DNA of 51,047 nucleotides, from NCBI GenBank assembly GCA_018648825.1, contig JABGQL010000073.1, forward strand, positions 2,118 to 53,164. The letters are read 5' to 3'. The position numbers and the translations under genes were made by a program. The notes beneath the pieces are model-generated. The model was not told the DNA's origin and searched no databases. It saw only the letters and a program-made list of their open reading frames with translations. Source of the DNA: Gammaproteobacteria bacterium. GTDB taxonomy: Bacteria; Pseudomonadota; Gammaproteobacteria; GCF-002020875. Positions 1 through 24,339 of this stretch are shown here, piece after piece. The first letter of the stretch is position 1. Each line of letters opens with the position of its first letter.

Positions 1-1383
1 GTCGGTGATGGGGTACTGTTGCAGAATACAGTCTGCCACGGTGCGACCCTGACTGATGCGATCACGCACTGAGACTCCGCCCAGATAGTTGGCGCAGAGG
101 TGTAGCCCGGGGTGGGCCGCAAGGTGCTGCTGCAGCTGCCTCATACGGGCGGCGTAGGGGCCATGGTAGAGCGGTAGTGCCTGTTGGTGGCGGTGTAGTT
201 GAACCATCTCAGGATCACCGTGAATGCCTAGAATAGGGGAGAGTGCGTGCAGGCTCTGCTCAATAATCTGCGGGTTGTCCCAGTCACGTACCTCAGGGTG
301 GCGTGCGCCGCCGAGATAGCTGGTGAGCAGCGTGCTCCCCTCTGGTGCGCGCCCACGGAACAGGCTGCTCATCCATAGGTTGCCATTGAATGGGGTCTGT
401 TCACTACGTGGGGTGAGGAATCCGGTGCCATCCAGAGGGTGGTGGATCTGGCTGCGTTGGAAGCCGGTGTGGAGTACAGCCAATGAGGCGTACTCAATCT
501 GTTGCAGTAGCTGGCTGGCCTCTGTGTCAATCGGCTTGAGTAGTGCTGCGGTGGCTGGGGCTGGGGTGCTGAAGATCACTTGATCTACATGACGCTGGAT
601 CTCTTGACCCGTTGTGAGGTTGGTCCCAGACACTTGCCAGCGCTCACCCGCCAAAGGTTCTACGCTGTTGGCCTGATGTGCCCGCAGAAAGGTAATCCCA
701 GGCTGTTGAGCAAGCTGCTCCACCAGTGTGGACATGCCGCCATCAAAAGAGAAGGTCTCCGTGACACAAGCACTCTTCTTACGCAAAATCTTGTGGGCGA
801 TGGCCCCTAGGGTGAGACTGCCAAACTTCTGCTCTAGTGCGGTCAGTCGTCCCAGAGTGGCGCTTGCGTTGGCTAGGTCTGGGTCAGAGGCAAGGGTCCC
901 GGAGACAAAGGGGTCCATCGCCTTGTCCAACAGTTCGCGACCAAAACGACGGGTGATAAAGTCGCTAACGGTCTCATTGTCACTGCCGCCACGGGGGATA
1001 AACGGCTCCATCATCATCCGCAACTTACCCTGTAGGCTCCAGTTATTGGAGAGGATGAAGTTGCTAATGCCCATGGTGAGGGCGTTTAGTTGTCCTCCGT
1101 TTAGCAGATAACGGTTCTGCTCCGCCAGCGGGGTGCGGCTGCACTTGTGTGGCTCCAGCCCACTGCGCTCTACAAATTCGGCCACCTCGGGACGGAAGTT
1201 GAGCAGTAGTGCGGCGGCCTGTTCCATCTGATAGCCCTGCTGTTGTGAGGTCTCGATCTTTCCGCCAGGACGGTTGTCTCGCTCCCACACCTCAACGGGA
1301 ATGCCAGACTGACTCAGCCACCATGCGGTGGAGAGGCCAGAGATGCCACCACCCATTACCAGCACCTTAGGGGGGCGGTTCAT
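1..1383 (-). CDS. hemY: HemY-type flavin-dependent protoporphyrinogen/coproporphyrinogen oxidase (3' end runs off the window; absent from ORF track)
   Basis: Manual translation from ATG at 1383: MNRPPKVLVMGGGISGLSTAWWL (FAD-binding GxGxxG), then E..RPGGKI, ETVSDFITRRFG, TFSFDGGMSTLVEQL, GFLTP, LLTSYLGG, ALPLY and NYLGGVSVRDRI. Frame is open to position 1; start overlaps the upstream stop (TGATG). Confidence 0.88.
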   Translation of the reverse strand, partial: MNRPPKVLVMGGGISGLSTAWWLSQSGIPVEVWERDNRPGGKIETSQQQGYQMEQAAALLLNFRPEVAEFVERSGLEPHKCSRTPLAEQNRYLLNGGQLNALTMGISNFILSNNWSLQGKLRMMMEPFIPRGGSDNETVSDFITRRFGRELLDKAMDPFVSGTLASDPDLANASATLGRLTALEQKFGSLTLGAIAHKILRKKSACVTETFSFDGGMSTLVEQLAQQPGITFLRAHQANSVEPLAGERWQVSGTNLTTGQEIQRHVDQVIFSTPAPATAALLKPIDTEASQLLQQIEYASLAVLHTGFQRSQIHHPLDGTGFLTPRSEQTPFNGNLWMSSLFRGRAPEGSTLLTSYLGGARHPEVRDWDNPQIIEQSLHALSPILGIHGDPEMVQLHRHQQALPLYHGPYAARMRQLQQHLAAHPGLHLCANYLGGVSVRDRISQGRTVADCILQQYPITD

Positions 1384-3407
1384 CAACTTTTGTTCCTGTT
1401 GGTGTGTGGCTTTTTCAGTTCGGCCCTCATCTGATCCAGCAGTTCTCGGTCCAGAACACCGAGTCCTTCGCCCTCTTCCCCTTGATGCTGCTCTACATGG
1501 CTGCGGATTTCGCTGAAGCGTTTCTCCGCCTGTGGGTTATCTTTGAGGCGGGGCACCTTCTGTTTGGCAACCTCATAGGCATCGAAATTCAGCTCATCCA
1601 TACCAAATCCGCGTAGGCGGCGTACCGCTTTCATCATTGCGCGATTACGAAAGCGGGTGAGATCTTCTGAGGTGATGCGTGCCAGCCCTTCGCGGCGGGC
1701 ATTGAACTCAGCAGCCTTTTTGATGCCTGCGCGGTTAAACTCGGGGGAGCCCTCTACCCGCTGTAGGGCATCGGCATCCCACTCGACCCCTGCCAGTTGA
1801 GTATCGATGATGGATTGCATGTCCACCGCCTCAACGGTGATGGCACTGCGTCGTTTGGCCTCACGCTCTGCCGCTGACTCCAGCGTTGGTTTTACAAACA
1901 GCACCACCTGCGGTTGGCGCTCGGCGAGAAAGGCCTCCAGCAGCTGTTCGGCCTCTGTGGACCAGTTGAGCTTACGCCCAGACTCATCTTCATTCTCTAG
2001 ACGGTCGAGTAGCTGGATATTAACTTCCAGCCGCCCTTCGGTATGGGCGACATCCTCGGCTACCGCACGTACCCCTTCACGTAGAAAGTGGGGGGTATCC
2101 TCTAGGCGCTGTTGCGCCTCGGTAGTCCAGACAAGGTGAATCTCCTTAGCAGGGGGAGAGTGGGGGCGCTTGGGCATGTTAGAGCCAAAGCGTTTGCTGG
2201 ATAACTCGGTCAGCACTTCAGAGGTTACGGTTGTCTGCTTCTGTTCTGCGACATGCTTCTCTGCGCGCTTCTTCACCATCTTTCGCAGGAAGCCGGGTAC
2301 ACGGGTGAGGCGCTGTTGCGCCTCGGGGGTCCAGTGAATCTCTCCCTGTGGGGTATCAGCCAGTGGTTGGATGACGGCATTGCCTTGGGGATGGTAAGAG
2401 CACCAAGGGTCGGTATCCATCAAATCATCACCCAATGCCTTGGGGCGGGCGCGACAGCCACCACAAAGAATTTGGTATTCACACTGCCCGCACTTTCCCC
2501 CCAGTGTGGGGTTGCGCAGCTGCTCAAAGGTGGGGGCGTGGTCCCAAATCTCAAGGAATGGCTGCTGACGAATGCTCCCCTCCTCATCAGGGATATAGGG
2601 GCAGGCGGTGACCGCTCCTTCTGGGGTGATACGGCAGTAGTGGGTACCTGCAATGCAACCGCCCCCCTCATACCCCTCTGCACGGGTAACAGAGCTGTTG
2701 GGATCATTCTGATAGGCGATGCGTTTGTAATGAGGCGCACAGCGGGCGCGGATCATCAGCTCAGGGTGCTTCTGTTGCGCTTCGATAATCCGTGTCAGTG
2801 CGATTTCATACTGCTCTGGGGTAATGTCTGACATCTTCTCACCGCGTCCGGTGCAGATCAGGAAGAAGATGTTGAGTAGGTGAGCACCAACCGATAGGGT
2901 GAAGTCGATCATCCCCTCCAGCTCAGCGGCATTGCCTTTGGTGATGGAAAAATGTACCTGAAATGGCAGCTCATGTTTACGGCAGGCATCCATCCCTGCC
3001 AGTGTCTTCTCCCAGCTGCCGGAGCAGCCCCGGAACTGGTCATGAATAGTGGGGTCAAGAGAGTCCACGCTGATACCGGCCCCCATCGCTCCGGCGGCCT
3101 TCAGTGATAGCACGCGCTTTTCGGTCAGCAGTACACCGTTGGTACCGATGACAATGGAGAGCCCCCGTTGTGTGCCGTGCTGCACCAGCTGCTCCAGATC
3201 TTTGCGGATCAGTGGCTCACCTCCGGTTAGCACCACCATGGTGTCTGTGCTACGCCCAGCCACCTCATCCAGTAGCTGCTTTACCTCTTGTGTGGTGAGC
3301 TCGTCCTCTGTGCCGTGCTGTAGGGTTTCAGCGTCGAGATAACAGTGGCTGCAGTTGAGGTTGCAGCGACGGGTTAGGTTGATGGCAAGAAGGAAGAGAT
3401 CGTTCAT
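1383..3407 (-). CDS. Radical SAM/SPASM protein of the AhbD/NirJ heme-biosynthesis group fused to four C-terminal PCP_red-like repeats
   Basis: CNLNCSHC radical SAM motif, LTGGEP, RARCAPHYKRI, SPASM cysteines (GCIAG..ACPY..CGQCEYQILCGGCRAR..DPWC). Repeats start WTPEAQQRL, WTTEAQQRL, WSTEAEQLL, WDADALQRV. Confidence 0.85.
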   Translation of the reverse strand: MNDLFLLAINLTRRCNLNCSHCYLDAETLQHGTEDELTTQEVKQLLDEVAGRSTDTMVVLTGGEPLIRKDLEQLVQHGTQRGLSIVIGTNGVLLTEKRVLSLKAAGAMGAGISVDSLDPTIHDQFRGCSGSWEKTLAGMDACRKHELPFQVHFSITKGNAAELEGMIDFTLSVGAHLLNIFFLICTGRGEKMSDITPEQYEIALTRIIEAQQKHPELMIRARCAPHYKRIAYQNDPNSSVTRAEGYEGGGCIAGTHYCRITPEGAVTACPYIPDEEGSIRQQPFLEIWDHAPTFEQLRNPTLGGKCGQCEYQILCGGCRARPKALGDDLMDTDPWCSYHPQGNAVIQPLADTPQGEIHWTPEAQQRLTRVPGFLRKMVKKRAEKHVAEQKQTTVTSEVLTELSSKRFGSNMPKRPHSPPAKEIHLVWTTEAQQRLEDTPHFLREGVRAVAEDVAHTEGRLEVNIQLLDRLENEDESGRKLNWSTEAEQLLEAFLAERQPQVVLFVKPTLESAAEREAKRRSAITVEAVDMQSIIDTQLAGVEWDADALQRVEGSPEFNRAGIKKAAEFNARREGLARITSEDLTRFRNRAMMKAVRRLRGFGMDELNFDAYEVAKQKVPRLKDNPQAEKRFSEIRSHVEQHQGEEGEGLGVLDRELLDQMRAELKKPHTNRNKS

Positions 3408-3416
3408 GGCTGTGGT

Positions 3417-5621
3417 TTACTTGTACTGATCAGGATTAGATTCCGAATGAAATCCACTGCCCATCTCCCACGCCTTACTAGACTTGTCCACTGCAGCATG
3501 AGTGACCTGCTCCAGTCCCAGCTCACGTGCACAGCGCTCTACCTCTAGCACCACCATCCCTTTGACAAAGTCGGGGATCTTCTCCATCCGTGCCTTGGCC
3601 TCTGGCTCCCACTCCATCTGTGACTCTTTCTGGCTGGAACCAGCTGCCCAGTCACTGTATTTCTCTTCAACCAGTGCCTCTGTGATCTCCGTGGTTCCCT
3701 GCTTCTTTGCAAACTGCTCTACCCGTTGGCGGGTTAGGTTGCGCATAAATCCTTCGGGGATGCGTTCCATTCGTGCCTCGGCATCTGCGCTCCACTGAAG
3801 TGTGCTCTTCTGTTGTGCTGCTTTCTCTTTACCCGCTTGGGCTAGGTTGGCGAAGGGACAGAGGCTTGCCTTCTTCTCTTCTGGTTCTGAGGTAAATTCT
3901 GGGGCTGCTGCTTCCGCTTTCATTGCAACCTCCATCGCCTTGCGTGCCTGCTCCAATCCCGATTCAGCCACCTCTAGAGTGACTTCATGGTGGCCGTGCT
4001 CTCGTGCATACGACTCAATACGCTGCTTGCTGGAGTCTCGCATAAACCCTTCAGGAACCCGTGTCAGGCGTGCCAGTGCAGCAGCCCCCCAGCTCAGCTC
4101 ACTCTGCTGATCATTGGCTGGACTAATGCTGGGGGAATCAATAAAGGGCTGAATATGAGAAAGGGTTACACGGTTAGAGCGCTCCCCGCGAGCCCGTTTC
4201 TCTGCACGCATACTCAAGTTACCGCGCAGAGCGAGGTCTTCAACGCCCATCAACAGCTGTGTCGCATCCCTATCCCAGCGCATTACTGCTTCGGTGACCC
4301 GTTTGGCATCTTCTTCGGGGGTACGTTTCAGCTCTCCCGCCTCATAGGCATCGACAATCTCACCCATCGCCTCTTCGGCGTGGCCGGGCATCAACTGCGC
4401 TGTCGCCTCTTCTACAATACGCTCGGTGATCACGGTGTGGCCGCGCTCTTGTGCATAACGCAAGATCGCCATCTTCGCCATGTTGCGAACAAAGGAGGGG
4501 ACCCGCTCCATGCGCTGTTCGGCTTCATGGGTCCAAGAGGTGGTGCTCTCTGCCACCACGTCAATACGGGGCTGGTGGGTGCGTTGGCTCAATAGTACGG
4601 CACACTCTACATTACGCAGTAGTAGCTCACTGTTACCGCCGATATCCAACTCATCATCGGCGTGGATGCCGAGCTTGCCAATCACCAACAGGGAGGGTCG
4701 TGCATTAGCAACATAGCGCTCCACCGCATCATGCGCCTTGCCGTCGAGTAGTTTGCTCTCAATTTCGACACCATACTCCTTGGCTATGGACTCGGCCACA
4801 TCCAGATGTCCTTGGTAGATCTTTGCCAGTCCAGAGTCGATAATCTCTTCGTGGAGCTTCTCCTGCTCTTTGAACTTGAATACCTTGCCCGCCTCTTCAG
4901 AGAGTACTCCTGCAATGCGGTTGAAGGCGACGTAGTGGTAGTAGGGGTCAAAGGCGGAGATCACCTCAACCTTACAGTCCCACTGCTGTGCTAGGGAGAA
5001 TGCGCTGAGTAGGCCGCCATAGGCCCGCTCAGATCCGTCGATTGCGACCACAATGGGGCCTCGGTTGAGCGGTTTCTCTGGCTCTTTGATCACCAGTAGA
5101 TCAATATCGGTACGACGTGCCACGCGGTCGGTAACGGTGCCGAGGCGGCTACCCCGTATCGCCCCCAATCCCAGTGCGCCCATCACCAGTAGATCGTATT
5201 TCCCGCTATTGGTCTCTCGGGTCAGCTCTCGGTAGTTCTTACCCTCTAGGCTGCGGCGCTGGAAGGGGATCTCATTCTCATCGGCGATGCGTTCTGCCTG
5301 ATCGAGATAAGAGTCGGTGATGATCGATAACCCCTTGGTGATGAGGTCATCATGTACGTCACGCTGCCGCTCCAGCTCCTGCTCTTCACGGAACTGCTCT
5401 GGCAGCCCCCCCTCCATTTGGCGGAAGCGGATATCATGCAACTTGGCGGCGTAGACGTGAGTTCCGCTGACCGTAGCAGCATAGTGGGCAGCGATACGAA
5501 ATGCTTCGGTGGTGCCACGGTTGGCATGGTCCGAGGAGTCTACTGCAAGAAGAATGTTCTGGTAGACGGGTAGGGGAGCAGGTTGATCTGCCTCTATGCG
5601 TACGACGTTCTCTTTCTGCAT
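3417..5621 (-). CDS. Tandem universal stress protein (two USP domains) fused to five PCP_red-like repeats
   Basis: ILLAVDSS..DLLVMGALGLG..LGTVTDRVAR and IVVAIDGS..LLVIGKLG..IGGNSELLLR. Repeats start WTHEAEQRM, WDRDATQLL, WGAAALARL, WSADAEARM, WEPEAKARM. Confidence 0.85.
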   Translation of the reverse strand: MQKENVVRIEADQPAPLPVYQNILLAVDSSDHANRGTTEAFRIAAHYAATVSGTHVYAAKLHDIRFRQMEGGLPEQFREEQELERQRDVHDDLITKGLSIITDSYLDQAERIADENEIPFQRRSLEGKNYRELTRETNSGKYDLLVMGALGLGAIRGSRLGTVTDRVARRTDIDLLVIKEPEKPLNRGPIVVAIDGSERAYGGLLSAFSLAQQWDCKVEVISAFDPYYHYVAFNRIAGVLSEEAGKVFKFKEQEKLHEEIIDSGLAKIYQGHLDVAESIAKEYGVEIESKLLDGKAHDAVERYVANARPSLLVIGKLGIHADDELDIGGNSELLLRNVECAVLLSQRTHQPRIDVVAESTTSWTHEAEQRMERVPSFVRNMAKMAILRYAQERGHTVITERIVEEATAQLMPGHAEEAMGEIVDAYEAGELKRTPEEDAKRVTEAVMRWDRDATQLLMGVEDLALRGNLSMRAEKRARGERSNRVTLSHIQPFIDSPSISPANDQQSELSWGAAALARLTRVPEGFMRDSSKQRIESYAREHGHHEVTLEVAESGLEQARKAMEVAMKAEAAAPEFTSEPEEKKASLCPFANLAQAGKEKAAQQKSTLQWSADAEARMERIPEGFMRNLTRQRVEQFAKKQGTTEITEALVEEKYSDWAAGSSQKESQMEWEPEAKARMEKIPDFVKGMVVLEVERCARELGLEQVTHAAVDKSSKAWEMGSGFHSESNPDQYK

Positions 5622-5872: not shown

Positions 5873-6643
5873 TTATTTCATTACGATGTTGACGGCAACG
5901 TTATCCCCACCCTTTACGGTGGCCTTGCCTTTTCCTGGCTTTAGGAAGCCATTAAAGGCACGTACTTTGTACTTGCCTGGAGGTACGTTATTGATGCTGT
6001 AGTTTCCATCTCCATCCACCATAGCGTAGTAGGGGTTTTTGGCAACAAAGACAAAGCCGTGCATAAAGTCATGGGCATCACACTCCACCTTCATCGCATC
6101 GCCCTTCTTCAGCTTGACCTTCTTGGCGACTTTGCTGCCTTGATCGGGCTGGCTGACGTTGGCGACGGTCTTCTTCGGTCCCTTCATGGTGCCAGTCAAC
6201 AGCTCATAGGTGTGGATGTTGTGCAGTACCGGATCAGAGTTGAGTGCGGTCAGCTTACCGCCATTCTGTAGTATGGAGAGGAAGGGGGTGAACTCACACC
6301 CCTGCTGATCGATGGTAGCCTCAGTTGGGGTTTCACCCCACGCTTTACCCTCTTTGACTTTGATTAGGTAGACCACGGTATTGAGCAGCGCCTTGCCATT
6401 GGTCTGCACATAGTCGACCACACGTTCGCCACTGCCGCAGACTTTGTTGTCTTTTTTGATGTTATAGACTTTATGAGCGGATTTTGGCGCCGCTTTCTTT
6501 AGAGTCACTGAGCCACTGATGGTGCCGCCGTTGGCCACATCGACCACTTTATAGCCCGCTTCAACAGCGAGTGGAGCAGCCAGTGTAGCGGTTGCGATTG
6601 CCGCAGCACTCAAGGTGCGACTGAGGTGTTGAATGGTTTTCAT
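5873..6643 (-). CDS. Exported protein with cupredoxin-like type-1 Cu motif and carboxypeptidase-regulatory-like beta-sandwich
   Basis: Sec signal ending VEA; DPVLHNIH ... ECDAHDFM (His...Cys-x2-His-x2-Met); C-terminal DGNYSINNVPPGKYKV; AGGAG RBS. Confidence 0.75.
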   Translation of the reverse strand: MKTIQHLSRTLSAAAIATATLAAPLAVEAGYKVVDVANGGTISGSVTLKKAAPKSAHKVYNIKKDNKVCGSGERVVDYVQTNGKALLNTVVYLIKVKEGKAWGETPTEATIDQQGCEFTPFLSILQNGGKLTALNSDPVLHNIHTYELLTGTMKGPKKTVANVSQPDQGSKVAKKVKLKKGDAMKVECDAHDFMHGFVFVAKNPYYAMVDGDGNYSINNVPPGKYKVRAFNGFLKPGKGKATVKGGDNVAVNIVMK

Positions 6644-9296: not shown

Positions 9297-9312
9297 TGCA
9301 GAAGGTGTGCCA
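9297..9312 (-). promoter_or_regulatory. Sigma-54 (-24/-12) promoter of the leftward HEAT/heme operon
   Basis: Minus strand TGGCACACCTTCTGCA: GG-N10-GC with full TGGCAC, about 70 bp upstream of the ATG at 9227. Confidence 0.8.
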
Positions 9313-9318
9313 TGTATG

Positions 9319-9342: not shown

Positions 9343-9418
9343 TATTGGTGGATGCTGTGGGGGCTAATAGGCTGTTTTGGATGAACTGTTCAATAGATGG
9401 ATCTGTTCCATCCGCCGT

Positions 9419-9488
9419 TGAATGAATCGTTCATTTTATGAATAAAACAGATCGGAATGGTGTTTTTTACAGGTGAATGATTCGTTCA
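9419..9488. promoter_or_regulatory. Pair of palindromic putative enhancer (UAS) sites
   Basis: TGAATGAATCGTTCA (9419-9433) and TGAATGATTCGTTCA (9474-9488), 14/15 identical, centres 55 bp apart, between two divergent sigma-54 promoters. Confidence 0.65.
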
Positions 9489-9511: not shown

Positions 9512-9524
9512 TATCAATGTGTTG
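9512..9524 (+). promoter_or_regulatory. IHF binding site
   Basis: TATCAATGTGTTG is a perfect WATCAANNNNTTR, located between the palindromes and the -24 element. Confidence 0.7.
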
Positions 9525-15720: not shown

Positions 15721-15788
15721 TGTTATCCCAGCACTCTTAAACAAGTTTTTGGGGTGGTGGAAGGTGTCAGGTAAGAGAGAAACTTAAA

Positions 15789-16055
15789 ATGGAACGTCTG
15801 AATTATATTGTAGAGTGGTTAGACCGAGAGTGGTTTCGTTTTCTCGTCTGGTTTCTGGTGGGGCTGTTTGTGATTCCTATGGGGATTACCTTACTGACTG
15901 GGGCGGTCAAGCTGGATCGATTCTATGATGGGTTAATGCCGGGGCAGCTCAATATTGGGGTGTTACTGTTAGCGATGGCCCCCTATCTGCTCTATTTGGG
16001 GTACCGCATTGTGCGTCATATGCGTGGTGGAGAAGGGGAAATTGAGGTTTTTTAG
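15789..16055 (+). CDS. Small two-TM hypothetical membrane protein
   Basis: 88 aa with two hydrophobic helices; purine-rich leader. Confidence 0.6.
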   Translation: MERLNYIVEWLDREWFRFLVWFLVGLFVIPMGITLLTGAVKLDRFYDGLMPGQLNIGVLLLAMAPYLLYLGYRIVRHMRGGEGEIEVF

Positions 16056-16279
16056 GGTATATTCAATTCGCACAGCTTGGTCAGATGTTCCCTAAGAGGC
16101 TGTAGATAGAACCAAAGAGAGTGAAGTCAGTTTTGGTTTTCTAGAGCTTTCCTATATGGCTGAAAGTGGAGCTTGTTGCTATTTAATAGTGATCATAAAA
16201 TTAACAATTGCTAATATAGTTATTGGGTGGTACTGTTCGCGGCTTTTCCGCCCTCTACACAGCTTAAGGCTTATAGCAC

Positions 16280-18259
16280 ATGCCCTCTTCGATTGCCTCC
16301 CACAAAAAGCCATTACTATCAAAAAAACAACTACTTGCGGCTGGCCTATTTGCCCTTCTGGCACTCTATCTAGCACTTATTGTCCCCACCATTGAGGTTG
16401 CATGGGTTAGCACTATTCTGGTGCTGACCATCTACCTGTTTGCGTTTGAAGTGGTCTCTGTGGATGTGGCTGCGATTACGGTGATGGTGCTGTTGGGGCT
16501 CACCACGCTGCTCGCTCCAATGATGGGGCTGGAGGCTGGGCTGGTTGATAACCGTCAGTTATTCAATGGCTTCTCCTCCAATGCGGTGATCTCCATTATT
16601 GCCGTGATGATCATTGGCGCGGGACTAGACCGTACCGGTATGATGAGTCGAGTGGCGACACTGATTCTCAACGTGGGAGGCACCACAGAGAAACGTATCA
16701 TCCCCATCATCTCCTCTACCGTTGGTTTTATCTCCTCCTTTATGCAGAACGTGGGCGCAGCTGCGCTGTTTTTGCCCGTGGTATCCCGTATCTCTGCCCG
16801 TTCAGGATTGCCGATGTCGCGGCTGTTGATGCCGATGGGCTTTACCGCGATTTTAGGCGGGACCATGACCATGGTCGGGTCCAGCCCCTTGATTCTGTTG
16901 AATGATCTGATTCTGGCCTCCAATCAGGCGCTTCCAGAGACACAGCAGATGGAGACTTGGGGGCTGTTCTCCGTTACTCCGGTGGGTGTTGCGCTGGTAT
17001 TGACCGGAATCGCCTACTTCATGGTTGCGGGTCGTTTTGTATTGCCAACCCATAGTGGAGAGGATGCCACGGTGAAGGGCGTTGATTCAATGCACTACTT
17101 TCATGAGGTCTATGGCGTTGACTATGGTATTCATGAGCTGGTGGTGGTTGATCAGAGCACCTTGGTTGGTAAACAGTTTGATGAAGTAGAGAATCGCTAT
17201 AGTGTGCGTATTATTGCAACCAAGTTGCCTGGAGAGGCACCTCGTGTAGGGCCGGGTGCATTGGCGCGTGATGTCGATATTCAGGCCGGTATGGTGCTGG
17301 GAGTGGTGGCAGAGCCTGCTCATCTGGAGCAATTTGTCTCCACCTTCCAGCTCAAGCAGCGCGATATGATGCGCACCTTCACCGAAGACCTCTCTCCGAA
17401 TAAATCGGGTATTGCAGAGGTGGTGATTCCTCCTCGTTCTGCGTTGATTGGTAAGAGTGCACGTGATCTCTGGATGCGTAAAATCTATGGTTTGGCGATG
17501 GTGGGGCTGCACCGTAATGGTGAAACTTTGCGAGAAGGGGATGATGTACGTAACCAGCCACTGATGGCAGGGGATACGTTGATGGTTCACACCTCATGGC
17601 GAGATCTTGAGCGTATCGAGAAGGATCGTGACTTTGTGGTGGTGACTACGGAGTTTCCACGTGAAGAGGAGATGCGTCCCCATAAAATTCTGCCAGCGGC
17701 CATTTTCTTCGGCATTGCACTGTTTATGGTGCTGTTTACCGATATTCGCCTCTCGGTAGCGTTGTTAACTGGAGCCATGGGGATGGTGCTGAGTGGGGTC
17801 TTGAGTATTGATGAGGCCTATGAGGCCGTGAGCTGGAAAACGGTCTTTCTGCTCGCCTCATTGATTCCTCTGGGGCTGGCGGTGGAGACCAGTGGTACCG
17901 CACGCTGGATTGCAGAGCAGGTGCTGGAGGTGGTTGGTGCTCAGCCGCTTTGGGTGATTCAGACTGCGATTGCGATATTGGCTACCTTCTTTACACTGGT
18001 GATGTCGAATGTGGGGGCAACGGTACTGCTGGTCCCCTTGGCGGTCAATATCGCAATTGGTGCGGGGGGTGACCCTGCTGTTTTTGCACTGACAGTGGCG
18101 ATCGCAACCTCCAACTCCTTCCTGATTCCGACGCATCAGGTGAATGCGCTGATTATGGGGCCTGCAGGATATCGCGTGGCTGACTTTATCCGCGCAGGCG
18201 GGGTGATGACGGTGCTGTTTATTGTGGTGCAGATTACTGCAATGAGCCTCTTCTTTTGA
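16280..18259 (+). CDS. SLC13/CitMHS-type anion permease with two TrkA-C (RCK_C) domains
   Basis: FMQNVGAAALFLP, GGTMTMVGSSP, central soluble VV..S.L.GK repeats, VMSNVGA, SNSFLIPTHQVNALIMGPAGY. Confidence 0.9.
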   Translation: MPSSIASHKKPLLSKKQLLAAGLFALLALYLALIVPTIEVAWVSTILVLTIYLFAFEVVSVDVAAITVMVLLGLTTLLAPMMGLEAGLVDNRQLFNGFSSNAVISIIAVMIIGAGLDRTGMMSRVATLILNVGGTTEKRIIPIISSTVGFISSFMQNVGAAALFLPVVSRISARSGLPMSRLLMPMGFTAILGGTMTMVGSSPLILLNDLILASNQALPETQQMETWGLFSVTPVGVALVLTGIAYFMVAGRFVLPTHSGEDATVKGVDSMHYFHEVYGVDYGIHELVVVDQSTLVGKQFDEVENRYSVRIIATKLPGEAPRVGPGALARDVDIQAGMVLGVVAEPAHLEQFVSTFQLKQRDMMRTFTEDLSPNKSGIAEVVIPPRSALIGKSARDLWMRKIYGLAMVGLHRNGETLREGDDVRNQPLMAGDTLMVHTSWRDLERIEKDRDFVVVTTEFPREEEMRPHKILPAAIFFGIALFMVLFTDIRLSVALLTGAMGMVLSGVLSIDEAYEAVSWKTVFLLASLIPLGLAVETSGTARWIAEQVLEVVGAQPLWVIQTAIAILATFFTLVMSNVGATVLLVPLAVNIAIGAGGDPAVFALTVAIATSNSFLIPTHQVNALIMGPAGYRVADFIRAGGVMTVLFIVVQITAMSLFF

Positions 18260-18285: not shown

Positions 18286-18353
18286 AGAACGAATTGTTCA
18301 ATCGTTCTCAAGTAATCCTAAGGGGGTATAGGAGAAAGTGAACAAAATGTTCA
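18286..18353. promoter_or_regulatory. Pair of putative enhancer palindromes upstream of the idr operon
   Basis: AGAACGAATTGTTCA (18286-18300) and TGAACAAAATGTTCA (18339-18353), centres 53 bp apart; same pattern as 9419-9488. Confidence 0.6.
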
Positions 18354-18439: not shown

Positions 18440-18455
18440 TGGCATAGAAGCTGCA
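18440..18455 (+). promoter_or_regulatory. Sigma-54 promoter of the idr operon
   Basis: TGGCATAGAAGCTGCA (GG-N10-GC); CTGGCATAGAA is identical to the promoter at 9543; AT-rich tract upstream. Confidence 0.78.
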
Positions 18456-18547
18456 GTCAATACCTGCGGTTTTTTCTATCAGATGACATTCATGCCATCT
18501 GGTAGGCCAATTGAATGATTTGTCCAACCATACAATGGAGAAACAAT

Positions 18548-19687
18548 ATGGGAGAACGACGAACAATAGTTCGAGGAGCAGTTGCAACTGCAGTTGCACT
18601 GGGCTTGAGTGTCGGTGTGTCTACATCGGTAACTGCGGGGTCACACGGCCCGGTAGCGAAGATTGATGTGAATGCTGCGAAAGCAGAGCTTGGAAAACGA
18701 CTTTTCTTTGATCGCCGCCTGTCAGGTGATGCTGGTATTTCCTGTTCAGACTGTCACAGTCCAGATCATGGCTACGGCAGTAAGGAGGCCCTCTCTCCGG
18801 GATATCCAGGTAATGGACATTTCCGTAATGCGCCATCGCTGTTGAACACCGCGCACAAGAAGACTTGGATGCATGATGGTCGTCTCGGAACCAATTTGAA
18901 TGATGTGACTCGTGAGATGCTCACTGAGGACTACATCATGAATATGGATATGCGGATGATGCAGGAGCGCGTTAAGCAGGACTCTGAGTATCTGGCGCTC
19001 TATAAGGCTGCAGGGATGAATGAGCCTTCCAATGGCAATATTCGCAAGTTGTTGCCAGAGTATATGAAGACCCTAACCACCCGCAATGCGCCAGTAGACA
19101 GTGGCACCATGAGTGCTGCAGCACAGCGTGGCGAAGCGATTTTTGATGGTAAAGGCAACTGTAATAGCTGCCATACCGGAGCGCTCTACTCTGATGGCAA
19201 GCGCCACAACACGGGTGTTCCTGAGAATCTGGATGTGTTCATGGACCCTATGAACCATCAGGCCTATCTCGCCTATGGTATCGGTATGGGGGTAGAGAAT
19301 ATCTTCAACACCAAACGTGATATCGGTGCAGCGGTTCAGAGCCATGAAGCTGATGGTTCAGATATCGGCACCTTTATGACTCCACAGCTACGTGGCCTCA
19401 AGTATAGCGCCCCTTACATGCATAACGGCATGATGGCGACACTGGCTGATGTGGTTGATTTCTACAATCAGGGCGGTGGGGCAGATAGCCACAAGAGTGC
19501 AATGCTGAAGCCACTGCGTTTGACCGATGGTGAGAAGGGCGATCTGGTTGCATACCTAGAGGCACTTTCTGGTGATGCACTAACCGGTTCTGAGTTTGTC
19601 TGGAGTAAGCCATACCCTGCTGAGTATGAGGTGATTCCAAACTGGACTCAGGTGGATAACCGCACCCGTGCGCCAATCAAGAAATAA
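18548..19687 (+). CDS. idrP2: Diheme cytochrome c peroxidase-family protein, iodate reductase-associated
   Basis: GGAG RBS before ATG 18548; signal peptide; LGKRLFFD, CSDCH, CNSCH, TPQLR..APYMHNG. P1/P2 numbering assigned from gene order only. Confidence 0.8.
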   Translation: MGERRTIVRGAVATAVALGLSVGVSTSVTAGSHGPVAKIDVNAAKAELGKRLFFDRRLSGDAGISCSDCHSPDHGYGSKEALSPGYPGNGHFRNAPSLLNTAHKKTWMHDGRLGTNLNDVTREMLTEDYIMNMDMRMMQERVKQDSEYLALYKAAGMNEPSNGNIRKLLPEYMKTLTTRNAPVDSGTMSAAAQRGEAIFDGKGNCNSCHTGALYSDGKRHNTGVPENLDVFMDPMNHQAYLAYGIGMGVENIFNTKRDIGAAVQSHEADGSDIGTFMTPQLRGLKYSAPYMHNGMMATLADVVDFYNQGGGADSHKSAMLKPLRLTDGEKGDLVAYLEALSGDALTGSEFVWSKPYPAEYEVIPNWTQVDNRTRAPIKK

Positions 19688-19705
19688 GCGATCAGGAGAT
19701 TGAAT

Positions 19706-20965
19706 ATGTTTGAAAAGAGAAAGACAAACCCAATCGCCGTTGCGGTCGCATTGGGCGCCACATTGATGGCAGGTTGCACCTCAGCAACCACATCCGTCTC
19801 TACCACTCCGGCCGCTACTGCGGCACCGGTGCAGGTGGCGATGAATGGAACCCCGACGATGGCTTCAGGAGTTGTTGCTGCGGGTGGTGAAAATAATCCG
19901 CCTCTGGCAGCGTTGGGTCCTGTGCCGGTACCTCCAGATAACCCCCAGAGTGCAGCCAAGGTTGAGTTGGGCAAGATGTTGTTCTTCGAGCCAGCGGTCG
20001 GTGGTGATACCTCCACGCCTTGTTCTGCCTGTCATGACCCAGATCAGGGTTGGGGCTGGGCAGAGGATATCTCTCGTGGATATCCAGGCACCGTTCACTG
20101 GCGTAACAGCCAGACTGTGGTGAACTCTGCCTACTATCCTCGTCTGTTCTGGGCCTCCTCGGTCTCTTCACTAGAGGCGCAGGCCAAGTCTGCTGCAGGT
20201 GGTGCGGTTGCAGGTAATGCCGAGTTTGATATCGTTGAGGCGCGTCTGGCACTGATGCCAGAGTATCGTCAGCGTTTCAACGAAGTATTTGGTGATGAGT
20301 TCCCGCTCTACCGCAACGCCTTCCGTGCGATTGCGGCCTTTGAGCGTGCCGAGCTGGTACAGCGTGATGCACCGATTGATAACTACTTCAATGGTGACAA
20401 GAGCGCGTTGAGCGAAGAGCAGCTGCGCGGTATGGCGCTGTTTAACGGCAAGGCCAACTGTATTGAGTGTCACAACGGCCCAATGGCAACCGACTTCAGC
20501 TACTACAACATTGGTGTACCTACGCTGGAACGCTGGAAGGAGGATGGTCTGGCACAGATCACCTATCGCTATGAGATGTATGCGAAGGGTTCAAACGAAG
20601 AGATGTACAAGAACTACAAGGATGATCCAGGTTTCTACTTCCGTGACAAAAACAGCTGGAACAAGGGTAAATTCCGTACGCCGTCTCTGCGTTACACCGC
20701 ATATTCTGCGCCCTATATGCATAACGGCACCCTCAATTCGCTGGAAGAGGTCATTGACTTCTACAATGCGGGTGGTGGACACAATATGTTCTCCAAGAAC
20801 AAGTCCAAGCTGATTAAACCGCTGGGTCTGAATGATGCCGAGAAGGAAGATCTGTTGGCATTCCTCGAGGCCTTCTCGGGTGAAGAGATCGCAATTGATC
20901 GTCCTAAGATGCCTGACTATGCACCTCTGTTTACCAAGGCAGAGCTGATGATGGAGAAGAAATAA
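19706..20965 (+). CDS. idrP1: Diheme cytochrome c peroxidase-family lipoprotein, iodate reductase-associated
   Basis: AGGAG RBS; lipobox LMAGC; LGKMLFFE, CSACH, CIECH, FRTPSLR..APYMHNG; adjacent to the Rieske gene. Confidence 0.8.
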   Translation: MFEKRKTNPIAVAVALGATLMAGCTSATTSVSTTPAATAAPVQVAMNGTPTMASGVVAAGGENNPPLAALGPVPVPPDNPQSAAKVELGKMLFFEPAVGGDTSTPCSACHDPDQGWGWAEDISRGYPGTVHWRNSQTVVNSAYYPRLFWASSVSSLEAQAKSAAGGAVAGNAEFDIVEARLALMPEYRQRFNEVFGDEFPLYRNAFRAIAAFERAELVQRDAPIDNYFNGDKSALSEEQLRGMALFNGKANCIECHNGPMATDFSYYNIGVPTLERWKEDGLAQITYRYEMYAKGSNEEMYKNYKDDPGFYFRDKNSWNKGKFRTPSLRYTAYSAPYMHNGTLNSLEEVIDFYNAGGGHNMFSKNKSKLIKPLGLNDAEKEDLLAFLEAFSGEEIAIDRPKMPDYAPLFTKAELMMEKK

Positions 20966-21576
20966 TGAGTGAATCAGTAACTATCGGTAAAAAGAGCCGA
21001 GAGGACCAGACCGCAGGAGAGCACGGCAAGTGCATGCTCAACCGTCGTCAGTTCTTGATGTACAGTGGTGCAACGGCAGCAACGGCCAGCACCGTATCTC
21101 TTACTCTGTTCCCAGGTACTGCCAAGGCAGCACAGGCCAAGGCACGTGTGGTTGGTTATCCACGTAAGCTGGTGGGCAAGTTGAGTGAGATGAAGGATAA
21201 CGTCCCTGCGGTCATCAACTACCCAGATGATGGCAAGAACTCCATGGCGACCATGGTCAAGACTGGTGTCAAGTGTGGCGGCGGTGTCGGAGCGCAGCGT
21301 GATCTGGTTGCCTTCAGTGCGCTTTGTACACATCAGGGCGGCCCGCTATTGGGTCGTTACAGAGTGGTGGATGAGCACCGGATCATGGGCTCTTGCCCAC
21401 TCCACCTCTCCACCTACGACGTAACCCGTCATGGAATCATCATCTCTGGTCAGGCTTATGAGAGTCTGCCGCAGGTCCTGTTGGAGCTGGATGGAGACGA
21501 TATCTATGCAGTAGGGATGATGGGATTGATCTACGGCCGTAACCAGAACCTCATGTCTGATACGACGGAATCTTAA
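20965..21576 (+). CDS. idrB: Tat-exported Rieske [2Fe-2S] small subunit (AioB-like)
   Basis: Tat motif NRRQFL; CTH ... CPLH ligands; C-terminal LPQVLLE..IYAVGMMGLIYGR typical of AioB/IdrB. Confidence 0.88.
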   Translation: MSESVTIGKKSREDQTAGEHGKCMLNRRQFLMYSGATAATASTVSLTLFPGTAKAAQAKARVVGYPRKLVGKLSEMKDNVPAVINYPDDGKNSMATMVKTGVKCGGGVGAQRDLVAFSALCTHQGGPLLGRYRVVDEHRIMGSCPLHLSTYDVTRHGIIISGQAYESLPQVLLELDGDDIYAVGMMGLIYGRNQNLMSDTTES

Positions 21577-21589
21577 GGAGAATTAAAGA

Positions 21590-24283
21590 ATGGCTACTAA
21601 TTATTATCTTCCAGAAGACTCCGCACCATTGCCACCCAAGCATGCGGATGTCCTGACTACAGCCTGCGACTACTGTATTGTCGCCTGTGGCTACAAGGTC
21701 TATCGCTGGCCTGTCGGTTCCGGTGACGGGGGGCCAATGGCATCTGAAAATGCCTTTAACCAGGACTTCCCAGCCAGCGCACTGCAAAACTGGGTTGCTC
21801 CGGCACAGCACAATGTGGTGATCCATAACGGTCGTCCACACAATGTGATCGTGGTTCCGGATAAAGATACGGAAGCAGTAAACAAGAATGGTGACTCCTC
21901 CATGCGTGGTGGTCTGTTGGCAGCCAAGTGCTACAACCCCAAGACTCCAACGCGTGATCGTCTCACCAACCCACTGGTGCGTATCAACGGTACACTACAG
22001 CCAGTGAGCTGGGACTTCGCACTGGATATCGCTGCGGAGGTGGGTCGCTATGTGATCAAGAATCACGGCGCCAACGCCTACTCCGTGAAGACCTTCTCCT
22101 ACCAGTATCTGGAGAACACCTACGCGATCAAGAAGTATGCACGTCGTAATGTAAATACTGCATCCTTCACCTTCCACGACACCCCATCGGATGTAACCTC
22201 GACTCCAGGCTTCCGTGATGCTGGGTTTGATAACTTCGGTCCATCGTATGATGACTGGGGTGATGCCGATGTACTGCAGATTCATGGTACGGACCCTTAC
22301 GAGACCAAGACCATCATCTATACGCAGTTCATCAAGCCTGCGATTGAACGTGGCATGAAGACCATCTGGTTGAATCCTCGTGAGACGGCCGGTATCGCCT
22401 ATGCCAATAGTAAGGGGCCGGATCAGACCATCCACTTCCAGCTGACACTCGGCACCGATACGGTACTGATGGGGGCAATTGCCCGTGTTATCTGTGAGAA
22501 CGGCTGGGAAGACTCCGACTGGGTTAAGAACTGGGTCAACAGCAAGTGGGAGACCTCTTCAGGCTTCGGTCAGGGTACCCGTAATACCCCTTGGCAGTGG
22601 CGTACCACTTGGGGCATGTTCCAGGTTAAGGGCGGCTTCAAGGGCTACAGCAAATGGGTACAGTCCAAGGATGAGTATAAGGTAGAGAACGCCGCGAAGA
22701 TCTGTGATGTTCCTGCTGCAGATATCATCAAGGCGGCGGAATGGCTTACCAATAAGGGTAAGGGCACCAAGGCCTCCTTCGGTATTGAGAAGGGGTACTA
22801 CTGGTCGAACAACACCGGTAACACCAATGCGGTCTCTTCACTGGCAACCATCTGTGGTGCTGGCGGACGTCCGGGTCAAGTTGTGGGTCGCTTCGGTGGT
22901 CACCAACGTGGTGGTGCAGGTGGCGGTAGCTATCCGCGCAACAAGTCTCCAGAAAAGCGTCCAGGTCGTCGTCGTCGTTCACTCGATACCGATCGTTACC
23001 TGATCTCTGGTCATACCCGTTTTGCTCACGTAATCGGTACCACCTGGATTCAGGCGATGACCGGTTCACAGAGCTTGTACAGTAAATTCCATGAGCTGGT
23101 GCTGGCCAATCCAAATCAGGTCAACTCCTACGATAAGCAGGAGATCATCGAGACCCTGAAGCGTCGTGCAGATTCAGGCGGTATGGTGGTGATCAATCAG
23201 GATATCTATCTGCGTGATCCGATCGGTGCCCGTTTTGCCGATGTGATCTTCCCAGCAGCAACCTGGGGTGAGACTGACTTTACCCGTTCCAACGGTGAGC
23301 GTCGTCTGCGTATCTACAACCAGTTCTACGATGCACCAGGACAGGCGAAACCAGATTGGTGGATCATCGCTGGAATGGCGAGCCGAATGGGTTATGAAGG
23401 CTTTGACTGGAAAAATGCCAATGAGGTTGCAGAGGAGTCATCACGCTCCAGCCGTGGTAACCGTAAGGCGTACCATATGGTCAAGGTTGCGGCACACCGT
23501 GAGGGTAAAACCTTCCATGAGAAGATGCGTGAATTCGGTACCACCGGTATCCAGGGGCCAACGGTCTATAACTACAAGACCGGTGAGCTGACAGGAACCA
23601 AGCGTCTGCACGACACCACCATTACCGAGGAGATGTGTGAGAAGCGTGGTGTCTACCAGGGTGCCAATATGACCAACAAGAAGATGACACACTTCAACTC
23701 GCAGACGGGTAAGGTCAATATCCAGAAGCATCCATGGAAACTGTTCTCAGACTTCCACGAGTGGTTGTCACCTAAGGGTGATGAGCTCTGGTTCTCCAAT
23801 GGTCGAATCAATGAGATTTGGCAGTCGGGCTTCGATGATGTTGAGCGTCGTCCATATGTCACCCAACGCTGGCCTGAGAACTGGGTCGAGATTCACCCTG
23901 ATGATGCCAAGGCTCGCGGTATTGAGTCTGGTGATCAGGTGATGCTCTACTCTGATCGTGTGGTCGAGTCGAAGGATACCATTCTGGGTGTACATGGGGA
24001 TGACTTCCAGTTCTCCACATTGATGAAGAATGGCCACCTCAAGTTCACCAAAGCTGCGGTAACGGCAGTTGCAGTGATTGCACCTCACCTGAAGAAGGGG
24101 ATGATGTACGGCAATATGCTGGATATGCGTCAGCCCAATAACTCGTTGCAGAACCGCGTGGTCGATCAGATCAGTGGTAACTACAACTACAAGATGGGTG
24201 TGGCTAAAGTGAAGAAGATCGGCGAATCGCAGTACAAGAAGGAGTTCCGCTCCATGTCTTGGGCGCCTCGTAATGTGATCTAG
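21590..24283 (+). CDS. idrA: Molybdopterin catalytic subunit, AioA-like clade; putative iodate reductase
   Basis: [3Fe-4S] motif CDYCIVACGY plus SSMRGG; EKG, GRFGGHQ, NGERRLR, NGRINEIWQS. FHDTPSDVTST replaces AioA HNRPAYNSE; preceded by Rieske and two peroxidase genes. Confidence 0.85.
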   Translation: MATNYYLPEDSAPLPPKHADVLTTACDYCIVACGYKVYRWPVGSGDGGPMASENAFNQDFPASALQNWVAPAQHNVVIHNGRPHNVIVVPDKDTEAVNKNGDSSMRGGLLAAKCYNPKTPTRDRLTNPLVRINGTLQPVSWDFALDIAAEVGRYVIKNHGANAYSVKTFSYQYLENTYAIKKYARRNVNTASFTFHDTPSDVTSTPGFRDAGFDNFGPSYDDWGDADVLQIHGTDPYETKTIIYTQFIKPAIERGMKTIWLNPRETAGIAYANSKGPDQTIHFQLTLGTDTVLMGAIARVICENGWEDSDWVKNWVNSKWETSSGFGQGTRNTPWQWRTTWGMFQVKGGFKGYSKWVQSKDEYKVENAAKICDVPAADIIKAAEWLTNKGKGTKASFGIEKGYYWSNNTGNTNAVSSLATICGAGGRPGQVVGRFGGHQRGGAGGGSYPRNKSPEKRPGRRRRSLDTDRYLISGHTRFAHVIGTTWIQAMTGSQSLYSKFHELVLANPNQVNSYDKQEIIETLKRRADSGGMVVINQDIYLRDPIGARFADVIFPAATWGETDFTRSNGERRLRIYNQFYDAPGQAKPDWWIIAGMASRMGYEGFDWKNANEVAEESSRSSRGNRKAYHMVKVAAHREGKTFHEKMREFGTTGIQGPTVYNYKTGELTGTKRLHDTTITEEMCEKRGVYQGANMTNKKMTHFNSQTGKVNIQKHPWKLFSDFHEWLSPKGDELWFSNGRINEIWQSGFDDVERRPYVTQRWPENWVEIHPDDAKARGIESGDQVMLYSDRVVESKDTILGVHGDDFQFSTLMKNGHLKFTKAAVTAVAVIAPHLKKGMMYGNMLDMRQPNNSLQNRVVDQISGNYNYKMGVAKVKKIGESQYKKEFRSMSWAPRNVI

Positions 24284-24307
24284 CCTAGGATTGTTGTAAT
24301 CCTGATG

Positions 24308-24339
24308 CCCCTGACGGAGTTCTCTGTCAGGGGTTTTTT
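24308..24339 (+). terminator. Intrinsic terminator of the idr operon
   Basis: CCCCTGACGGAG-tt-CTCTGTCAGGGG followed by T6. Confidence 0.88.

Follow-up and report, generated by a model that had tools for sequence, protein, structure and literature searches.

The window analysed here is a stretch of 51,047 nucleotides from a gammaproteobacterial contig (JABGQL010000073.1, assembly GCA_018648825.1). It carries a predicted iodate reductase cluster, idrP2-P1-B-A, beside genes for a cytochrome bd-like complex of the OR-N type and an operon of HEAT-repeat and haem-handling proteins. We hold, with somewhat better than even confidence, that these genes make up a low-oxygen, iodate-responsive sigma-54 regulon in which the bd-like complex is a companion OR-N reductase working beside the iodate reductase Idr. 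The window would contain most of a conserved, mobile, extended iodate-reduction island acting as one sigma-54 regulon. A kinase that senses in the periplasm and an activator of the NtrC family, both encoded at the 3' end of the HEAT/haem operon, would switch on three units: (i) idrP2-P1-B-A, for the periplasmic iodate reductase and two peroxidases; (ii) the OR-N bd-like complex, consisting of a 14-helix CydA-like protein, a one-helix small subunit, a dihaem cytochrome c and a trihaem c/haem b protein; and (iii) a tetrapyrrole-handling set, joined in its operon by genes for a probable periplasmic cupredoxin and for the two regulators. The bd-like complex would take electrons from periplasmic c-type haems and deliver them to O2 or another small oxidant at a conserved dihaem site. 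It would operate beside Idr under oxygen limitation, not feeding Idr from quinol, and Idr would draw its electrons from the bc1 complex via cytochrome c and/or the cupredoxin. The gene content, the cis-elements and how they are conserved, the synteny and co-occurrence, and the fold with its kept ligands are observed; we infer that the activator binds, what induces the regulon, which way the electrons run and what the bd-like complex reduces.

The assembly holding the window (genome G000) comprises 2.65 Mb and is 88.5% complete. Signal peptides, transmembrane (TM) segments and haem motifs of the window proteins were identified by eye from the translations. The gene content proposed in an earlier note on this DNA was borne out by Pfam and NCBIfam profile matches, and the features are collected in Table 1.

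Identity of the iodate reductase

The cluster at 18515..24283 is assigned to the iodate reductases on its sequence features. IdrA contains, by eye, the [3Fe-4S] motif C-X2-C-X3-C-X70-S (C26, C29, C33 and S104). Its closest solved structures are AioA/AroA (E 1e-78), and its score against the AioA equivalog TIGR02693 lies marginally above the cut-off (380.2 bits, cut-off 359.05). The two peroxidase genes that precede idrB set the neighbourhood apart from the Aio type, which is without peroxidases. In IdrB, RRQFL and CTH-X20-CPLH were likewise recognized by eye; the Rieske spacing is thus X20 here, as against the X18 reported for Azoarcus sp. DN11. IdrA is 63–78% identical to homologues in the same peroxidase-peroxidase-B-A context, and the order idrP2-P1-B-A is called characteristic of iodate reductases in PMC10989891.

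Five proteins encoded in the genome match PF00384, namely two NapA, NuoG, one unassigned cytoplasmic enzyme and IdrA. The earlier note had considered that the bd-like module might follow a Nar- or NXR-type enzyme encoded elsewhere; no enzyme of that type is among the five, and the module does not track one. A cytoplasmic molybdopterin enzyme of 968 aa at locus L005 (C144:11298-14204) falls below every NCBIfam cut-off, its best score being 229 bits against PhsA (cut-off 694).

The bd-like complex

Over the first helices, a profile built from close homologues of the bd-like protein can be matched to solved CydA chains. It places H80 opposite His21 of Geobacillus CydA (5doq_A), E167 opposite Glu101 and H246 opposite the b558 histidine; in the E. 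coli numbering these are His19, Glu99 and His186. At least 90% of the sequences in a diverse alignment of 29 bd-like proteins (25–85% identity) keep H80, H190 and H246. The AlphaFold2 model of the 9982-11799 product obtained with this alignment (pLDDT 85.6) has 14 long helices spanning residues 69–592. Compared with ten CydA chains it gave Z 32–35 and an rmsd of 3.3–3.9 over 344–363 aligned residues, the next tier of structures reaching Z ≤21. That tier includes ActC/ActF, the quinol-interacting subunits of alternative complex III (Z 18–21, 314–323 residues). An AlphaFold2 model from 12 close sequences was set aside (pLDDT 44.7), as was a haem-copper-like site (H398/H399 plus H546/H548), which is invariant only in the 12 close homologues and conserved in less than 90% of the diverse alignment. 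The profile alignment to CydA ends near query residue 297, at about TM6; similarity to the Q-loop was undetected, and the model is without a long periplasmic loop.

The family is large, with 1102 representative clusters at E ≤ 1e-3. A bioRxiv paper on the bd superfamily defines OR-N by the absence of a quinol site, by operons with alternative electron donors and, in OR-N1/N2, by 14 helices. According to PMC10839748, OR-N likely uses cytochrome c and is conserved in nitrite oxidizers, its function not being experimentally confirmed. On sequence and model, the bd-like protein matches this family in its CydA fold, its kept haem ligands, its 14 helices and the cytochrome c/EB_dh genes of its operon.

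Of the partner proteins, the 813-aa protein has by eye three N-terminal TM segments, three CxxCH motifs, an EB_dh domain and a C-terminal TM segment. The EB_dh domain matches PF09459 with 53.9 bits (cut-off 33.3). The score against TIGR03477 is 60.9 bits, below the cut-off of 169.85, so that the protein appears to carry the domain without belonging to the equivalog. The start of the 67-aa protein was re-set to GTG 9598 because the promoter falls inside the frame that begins at ATG 9517; weak homologues of it are found upstream of the bd-like gene in several loci.

Genomic linkage of the complex and the reductase

The best 120 bd-like matches are 72–90% identical and include Sedimenticola, Thiodiazotropha, Thiolapillus and tubeworm symbionts. 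Among 80 loci around bd-like homologues, 26 contain IdrA and three more have the peroxidase genes in a locus that ends before IdrA, giving 29/80. These 29 belong to Gammaproteobacteria, Alphaproteobacteria (Sneathiellales, Marinosulfonomonas, Roseovarius, Neptunicoccus and Hyphomicrobiales) and two Nitrospinota, the last in divergent orientation. Where the bd-like protein is at least 62% identical and the flank extends at least 5 kb past the module, idr was present in 27 of 29 loci, the exceptions being two Parvularculaceae; some 20 loci with equal flank and a bd-like identity of 61% or less were without idr.

Co-occurrence was also scored per genome. Within the genus, the bd-like gene is present in nine of the 14 other genomes, and IdrA in exactly these nine; as these genomes are close kin, this may reflect a single gain or loss. 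Across the class, 400 further genomes, evenly sampled, were scored for IdrA-like (E ≤ 1e-100) and bd-like proteins (E ≤ 1e-60). IdrA-like proteins were found in 14 and bd-like proteins in 15 (of 399 scored), and both in 10 genomes from 9 families, against about 0.5 expected by chance. Neighbourhoods were compared in 18 stretches from 14 genomes. Genome G356 has the same gene set rearranged, with idr next to the activator gene, and in G179 the whole set recurs at 45–48% identity. Of the four genomes with IdrA only, G341 and G167 are without peroxidase genes and thus Aio-type, and in G318 IdrA lies at the end of an 11.4-kb contig. Five further genomes have bd-like loci showing no idr. An IdrA-like gene lies 9 kb upstream in one of them (a Burkholderiales metagenome-assembled genome, MAG), and none was found in the other four, which represent Magnetococcales, Mariprofundaceae, Parvularculaceae and a deltaproteobacterium; PF00384 matched once in the Mariprofundaceae genome. 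Overall, the link between Idr and the bd-like module suggested by the earlier note is seen as synteny conserved, and sometimes rearranged, across classes and as co-occurrence in genomes.

Two islands, at locus L186 (G404:C4:162000-181999) and in G258, have two bd-like genes (57% and 41% identical to that of the window) and duplicated cytochrome c/EB_dh genes beside an IdrA-like gene (53%). The two bd-like genes may be an OR-N1/OR-N2 pair.

Promoters and regulators

The pattern TGGCAY-N6-TGCW has four matches in the window (0.85 expected; none of 100 shuffles reached four): 9297-9312 on the minus strand, 9543-9558 and 18440-18455 on the plus strand, and 19102-19117, which is intragenic. The first three are the sigma-54 sites proposed before, which are thus located as claimed and above chance. 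CTGGCATAGAA occurs at both plus-strand promoters, in agreement with the shared sequence reported for two of the sites. The palindrome TGAAY-N5-RTTCA has three exact matches in the window (0.18 expected; one of 100 shuffles reached three), beginning at 9419, 9474 and 18339, and one-mismatch copies at 18286 and 9378. The paired arrangement described earlier, with spacings of 53–55 bp, was recovered as 55 bp between 9419 and 9474 and 53 bp between 18339 and its upstream partner 18286, which has the one mismatch. The predicted IHF-like site at 9512..9524 was spotted by eye with the IHF consensus WATCAA-N4-TTR.

The genome scan for such palindromes near sigma-54 sites, which the earlier note had called for, again points to the window. 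Exact palindromes number 30 in the assembly. Of its 48 strict sigma-54-like sites, six are preceded, within 300 bp, by a palindrome with no more than one mismatch; three of these six are the window's own, and one other, at moaA on contig C156, has two palindromes. The same elements recur in the window and 13 further gammaproteobacterial loci: a forward TGG[CT]-N8-TGC before the bd-like operon and at least one palindrome between the bd-like and HEAT operons in 14/14 regions, and a reverse sigma-54 site facing the HEAT operon in 9/14. Before idr, TGG-N9-TGC[AT] lies about 100 bp downstream of the palindrome in 15/15 sequences when judged by eye (three with a strict regular expression). In other gammaproteobacterial genera, the sigma-54 elements and the palindromes both keep their offsets.

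Between the palindrome and the sigma-54 element, the idr promoters of four Sedimenticola-/Thiodiazotropha-type loci (L042, L048, L049 and L051) contain FNR-like boxes (TTGAT/C-N4-ATCAA), of which there are none in the window. These boxes may reflect an additional oxygen signal there. A fourth member of the regulon is a possibility at moaA (contig C156; L001, 10804-10957), where TGGCACAAGAACTGCT and an upstream palindrome lie 5' of the gene; moaA of G006 has the identical sigma-54 16-mer and a one-mismatch palindrome (L195), and an exact palindrome was found at none of the five moaA loci of relatives.

No sigma-54 activator gene lies within the window; the genome has seven full activators and one truncated. 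Four island-positive small genomes of the same genus (G010, G011, G006 and G003) and the island-negative G012 were compared for activators. Each of the four has an NtrC-like, an NtrX-like and a further activator, the last 70–90% identical among them (G006 has three more besides these), and G012 has the NtrC-like and NtrX-like activators only. In three of the four (G010, G011 and G006) the extra activator is on the island contig. In G011 the minus-strand order is HEAT, cupredoxin-like, Usp_PCP, rSAM_PCP, HemY, orf122 (122 aa), kinase and activator, followed by housekeeping genes. The kinase (889 aa) has a dCache-type sensor, two PAS domains, HisKA and HATPase, and the activator is REC-AAA+-HTH (NtrC family). 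In the present genome, within the 2.1 kb before the window (contig C15:2-2182), a kinase gene cut by the contig start encodes a protein 65% identical to the G011 kinase over 673 aa; because of this truncation the activator gene must lie just beyond the contig. In five of five distant genomes (a Sedimenticolaceae MAG, Motiliproteus, Sedimenticola hydrogenitrophicus, Thiodiazotropha and a Chromatiales MAG), the best activator match is 60–67% identical and lies 2.4–3.7 kb beyond hemY.

A dedicated kinase and sigma-54 activator pair thus belongs to the island. With the elements conserved across genera and rpoN found in the genome, this supports the candidate sigma-54 regulon of the earlier note. 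The activator would bind TGAAC-N5-GTTCA and fire the three sigma-54 promoters, and, the regulator genes being inside the HEAT/haem operon, the system would be auto-regulated.

Other activators of the genome were rejected as the island regulator. Those on C53 and C131 do not track the island across the genus, C160 is NtrC, C124 is LuxO-like, C37 is NtrX-like, and the two on C68 have no NCBIfam assignment (a flagellar type is a guess). The truncated activator on C52 is not the orthologue; at this locus (L013) the truncated REC-AAA+ protein at the contig edge has as neighbours two hybrid kinases and a protein of 303 aa that weakly matches a sigma-54 DNA-binding domain. The activators beside the module in two alphaproteobacterial loci (L067 and L085) are without a close orthologue here, and those loci are without the palindrome.

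The statement that this linkage is undescribed stood in part. In open-access main texts, figures and supplements aside, no publication was found linking idr with a bd-like/OR-N module or with these haem genes, and neither iodate nor arsenite occurs in the main text of either of two OR-N papers. A sigma-54 regulator and kinase beside idr, on the other hand, are already in print for Azoarcus sp. DN11 (PMC10149662).

The HEAT/haem operon

The first protein of this operon, of the HEAT/PBS-lyase type, has no signal peptide. The 256-aa product of 5873..6643 has a signal peptide and, by eye, C-X2-H-X2-M; its residues 110–200 align with positions 6–98 of the 99 of PF00127 (E 0.027), the 15.3 bits lying below the cut-off of 21.2, and a search of PDB sequences gave nothing below E 0.11. 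We regard it as a probable cupredoxin. The radical SAM protein scores 315 bits against TIGR04055 and 302 bits against TIGR04545 (cut-offs 500 each) and is thus classed by profile as a relative, not a member, of the AhbD/NirJ equivalogs. The PCP_red, radical-SAM and HemY genes stay with the module at loci that have no idr, and their products probably serve the haems of the bd-like module. The cupredoxin-like protein may be the direct electron donor to IdrB, by analogy with azurin and arsenite oxidase and because its gene stays with the molybdenum enzyme in G100 and G167, which lack the module.

Electron flow and alternative explanations

Whether or not they carry the island, all 17 genomes of the family encode haem-copper oxidases, and 16 of them encode a bc1-type cytochrome b. 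Together with the kept dihaem ligands, the haem-rich partners and the occurrence of the module on its own, this favours a cytochrome c-fed terminal reductase over a quinol dehydrogenase. Of the two roles that the earlier note had set side by side, the companion reductase of O2 or by-products is therefore the likelier candidate and the quinol-oxidizing conduit the less likely one. A coupling to Idr would be physiologically sensible because, in Roseovarius azorensis, Idr is oxygen-sensitive and idr is induced by iodate under oxygen limitation (PMC11445184), and because in one published model hypoiodous acid (HIO) is dismutated to iodide and O2 (PMC10149662 and PMC10989891).

The operons are present in RNA libraries. 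Six metatranscriptome runs hold 35–86% of the sampled words of 9000-18999, and in four of four runs each of the three operons is covered in part by RNA-library contigs with an identity of at least 99%.

Several points weigh against the companion-reductase regulon. In all four runs the contig depth is 0–26 over the bd-like operon and 27–240 over idr, and bins of the bd-like operon are without cover in runs X17 and X18; since the runs are assembled contigs that may include DNA and cannot rank genes, these depth differences and empty bins are uninterpretable, and co-regulation lies beyond such contig data. The periplasmic haem-rich subunits would suit an electron wire to Idr equally well. E167, the majority residue at its position, is conserved in less than 90% of the 29-sequence alignment, and the absence of a quinol site is deduced indirectly, from published statements, the short profile alignment and the loop in the model. 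The module is not obligatory for Idr: in G100, which is 100% complete, idr faces the HEAT and cupredoxin-like genes and there is no bd-like gene, and Azoarcus DN11 is described without a c-type cytochrome gene near idr (PMC10149662). On the regulatory side, binding of the palindrome by the activator is what we infer, and no activator orthologue was found elsewhere in the 88.5%-complete assembly. The moaA gene of G011 has neither the 16-mer nor the palindrome and directly follows another gene. Nor was the palindrome found in the alphaproteobacterial loci; in three of these a strict sigma-54 site precedes the first peroxidase gene, and in two a kinase and an NtrC-type activator are encoded directly upstream of the bd-like gene. 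Sigma-54 control thus seems general across lineages and activator specificity lineage-dependent.

As an alternative, the bd-like protein could oxidize membrane quinol and pass the electrons through the five c haems and the haem b of the EB_dh domain to IdrB/IdrA, replacing bc1 and soluble cytochrome c. Such a conduit would supply the membrane subunit that Idr is without (the published model needs bc1 and cytochrome c; PMC8692401), and the genes of the module immediately precede idr and share its control elements. EB_dh domains are electron-transfer subunits of periplasmic type II molybdenum enzymes (PF09459 and TIGR03477 matches), both cytochrome subunits are membrane-anchored and could form a fixed wire, and the model resembles ActC/ActF. 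We nevertheless consider it unlikely, as OR-N is described in print as cytochrome c-oxidizing and without a quinol site, the equivalents of the active-site ligands are kept, and bc1 is found in the family regardless of the island. Moreover, each partner occurs alone, idr in G100 and, as published, in DN11, and the module in four of the five further genomes.

In a more specific proposal the OR-N complex of these islands, instead of being a general oxygen reductase, would supply the missing second step of iodate respiration. Fed by cytochrome c, its dihaem site would turn the reactive product of IdrAB (HOI, or O2 or H2O2 derived from it) into iodide and water in the membrane with conservation of energy, the PCP_red, radical-SAM and HemY proteins building a special haem. 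We regard this as a speculative idea with a rather small chance of being correct. If true, the OR-N family would be one of reductases for reactive oxidants from periplasmic molybdoenzymes, including NXR.

The operons might also travel together on a mobile island without functional coupling, the motifs belonging to a general low-oxygen regulator. The blocks do occur singly (G100, G211 and G420-G423), and idr is described in PMC8692401 as horizontally transferred, with poorly conserved surroundings. This explanation appears improbable, as the gene set survives rearrangement (G356) and deep divergence (G179) and spans Gammaproteobacteria, Alphaproteobacteria and Nitrospinota, and as the two genes co-occur in 10 genomes where about 0.5 would be expected. 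Furthermore, the activator is island-encoded and missing from the island-negative G012, and the palindrome is rare elsewhere in the genome.

In the oxidative direction, the AioA-like enzyme would oxidize iodide or another reduced substrate with OR-N as its terminal oxidase, mirroring NXR and OR-N in nitrite oxidizers and Aio with azurin or cytochrome c in arsenite oxidizers. OR-N accompanies substrate-oxidizing NXR-type enzymes, and the island encodes a cupredoxin-like carrier; against this direction, the energy yield of iodide oxidation with O2 would be very small, and two peroxidases suit a reductive route that makes oxidants. Although OR-N is named for Nitrospirota and is carried by nitrite-oxidizing Nitrospinia, and the nearest characterized relative of IdrA is an oxidase (PMC8692401), we give this direction very little credence, as in marine aerobes with idr iodate is reduced, Idr was identified there and it is iodate-induced under oxygen limitation (PMC11445184).

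Other features of the window

Table 1. Coordinates, strand and supporting matches of the annotated features, numbered from the first letter of the window.
Feature	Coordinates	Strand	Evidence
HemY-type protoporphyrinogen/coproporphyrinogen oxidase	1..1386	-	PF01593 E 4.5e-50; TIGR00562 242.8 bits, cut-off 97.85
Radical SAM/SPASM protein, AhbD/NirJ type, fused to 3 PCP_red (tetrapyrrole-binding) repeats	1383..3407	-	PF04055, PF13186, PF08369 x3
Protein with Usp domains and 4 PCP_red repeats	3417..5621	-	PF00582, PF08369 x4
Periplasmic 256-aa protein: signal peptide, probable cupredoxin, C-terminal CarboxypepD_reg-like domain	5873..6643	-	
Cytoplasmic HEAT/PBS-lyase-type repeat protein, 837 aa, first minus-strand operon gene	6714..9227	-	PF13646 E 1.5e-67, PF03130
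Predicted sigma-54 promoter, HEAT/haem operon	9297..9312	-	pattern match
Putative shared upstream activating region, three TGAAY-N5-RTTCA sites: 9378 (1 mismatch), 9419, 9474	9378..9488	.	
IHF-like site (predicted), between activating region and plus-strand promoter	9512..9524	+	by eye
Predicted sigma-54 promoter, bd-like operon	9543..9558	+	pattern match
67-aa protein, one TM segment	9598..9801	+	GTG start 9598
OR-N-type cytochrome bd-like (CydA-like) membrane protein	9982..11799	+	PF01654 E 7.8e-21
Membrane-anchored dihaem cytochrome c	11796..12629	+	PF00034; N-terminal TM segment and 2 CxxCH by eye
813-aa cytochrome c/EB_dh (NxrC/EbdC-like haem b) protein	12664..15105	+	PF13442, PF00034, PF09459
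Insertion: REC-domain protein, 88-aa open reading frame, CitMHS/TrkA_C transporter	15232..18259	+	
Putative upstream activating region of idr operon, palindromes 18286 (1 mismatch) and 18339	18286..18353	.	
Predicted sigma-54 promoter, idr operon	18440..18455	+	pattern match
Dihaem cytochrome c peroxidase, idrP2 position	18515..19687	+	PF03150 E 3.1e-32; 2 CxxCH
Dihaem cytochrome c peroxidase, idrP1 position, probable lipoprotein	19700..20965	+	PF03150 E 1.8e-37; 2 CxxCH
IdrB Rieske subunit, twin-arginine signal	20965..21576	+	TIGR02694 111.2 bits, cut-off 95.65
IdrA, AioA-like molybdopterin subunit	21590..24283	+	PF00384, PF18465, PF01568
Intrinsic terminator-like hairpin at end of idr operon	24307..24334	+	

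Within the window hemY is the last gene of the minus-strand operon and extends past the window start. The three genes between the bd-like and idr operons (REC, 88-aa frame and CitMHS) are missing from all 80 related loci, including the one that is 91% identical, and are therefore taken as an insertion outside the conserved island. RNA-library contigs have high depth over it (63–107), and the contigs of runs X16 and X17 stop at 16258 against adapter sequence, 22 nt 5' of the transporter ATG.

Two large chemoreceptors (24429-27392, beginning immediately past the idr terminator, and 38441-41749) have NIT (nitrate/nitrite-sensing) domains, HAMP arrays and a C-terminal zinc-binding CZB domain. At 32262-34709, two U32 peptidase-family genes and an SCP2 gene stand in series; the row presumably resembles UbiU/UbiV/UbiT of oxygen-independent ubiquinone synthesis, which would suit a low-oxygen lifestyle. 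Near the contig end, a signalling cluster (42750-50317) encodes a PhnD-type periplasmic binding protein, a 618-aa protein without Pfam match, a kinase and a hybrid kinase, the kinase having in common with the island kinase the sensor-domain family PF21623.

Significance

Iodate reduction influences how much iodide is present in oxygen-minimum zones and surface seawater, and how aerobes use Idr is stated to be unclear in PMC11445184. The pairing with idr recurs in many unrelated ocean bacteria and would give the OR-N oxidase family a first functional context. As it is present in cultivable Proteobacteria (Sedimenticola, Aestuariirhabdus, Motiliproteus and relatives of Roseovarius), it also offers a genetically tractable setting for OR-N function. 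The analysis points further to a probable iodate-sensing kinase with its activator and their putative DNA site, and it adds markers for recognizing iodate reducers, lucinid and tubeworm symbionts among them, in metagenomes.

Comparison with known systems

The perchlorate reduction island is likewise a horizontally mobile oxyanion respiratory island with its own regulatory genes; it differs from the Idr island in its enzyme family and is not known to carry a bd-like module. Arsenite oxidase, AioBA, is a Rieske/molybdenum enzyme of the same clade as Idr. With AioXSR and RpoN, it has a sigma-54 promoter, a kinase and an NtrC-type activator, as the present island does, and it has an azurin or cytochrome c partner (compare the NCBIfam name 'arsenate reductase (azurin)'). 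Aio neighbourhoods are without peroxidases (PMC8692401), whereas the window island has two. In the Aio-type loci of G341 and G167 there is no bd-like gene within stretches of 20 kb, and neither genome scored a bd-like match.

With the IdrABP1P2 islands of Pseudomonas sp. SCT, Denitromonas sp. IR-12 and Azoarcus sp. DN11, the window has in common the order idrP2-P1-B-A, an A subunit with a predicted [3Fe-4S] cluster, a TAT-Rieske B subunit and two dihaem peroxidases. Unlike them, the window and at least 29 related loci add the OR-N bd-like/cytochrome c/haem b module, and Gammaproteobacteria further add the HEAT/PCP_red/radical-SAM/HemY operon and the cupredoxin-like gene. Published descriptions of idr state that the surrounding genes are poorly conserved, and the text seen does not mention these added modules (PMC8692401; its figures and supplements could show the neighbourhood).

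Canonical CydAB has in common with the bd-like protein the fold of subunit I in the model and the equivalents of His19, Glu99 and His186. The bd-like complex differs from it in several ways: there is no CydB gene, similarity to the Q-loop is undetectable, the CydA-like protein has five additional helices, and the complex has cytochrome c and haem b subunits of its own. The closest likeness in composition is to the OR-N complexes of Nitrospira, Nitrospina and anammox bacteria, in which a 14-helix CydA-like protein with the His19 equivalent kept likewise occurs together with c-type cytochromes, a haem b protein of the EB_dh type and a cupredoxin-like protein. In contrast to the Nitrospira type, the partner enzyme predicted here is an iodate reductase of the AioA clade, not an NXR/Nar-type enzyme, the hosts are mostly Proteobacteria, and the module would stand under a dedicated sigma-54 two-component system.

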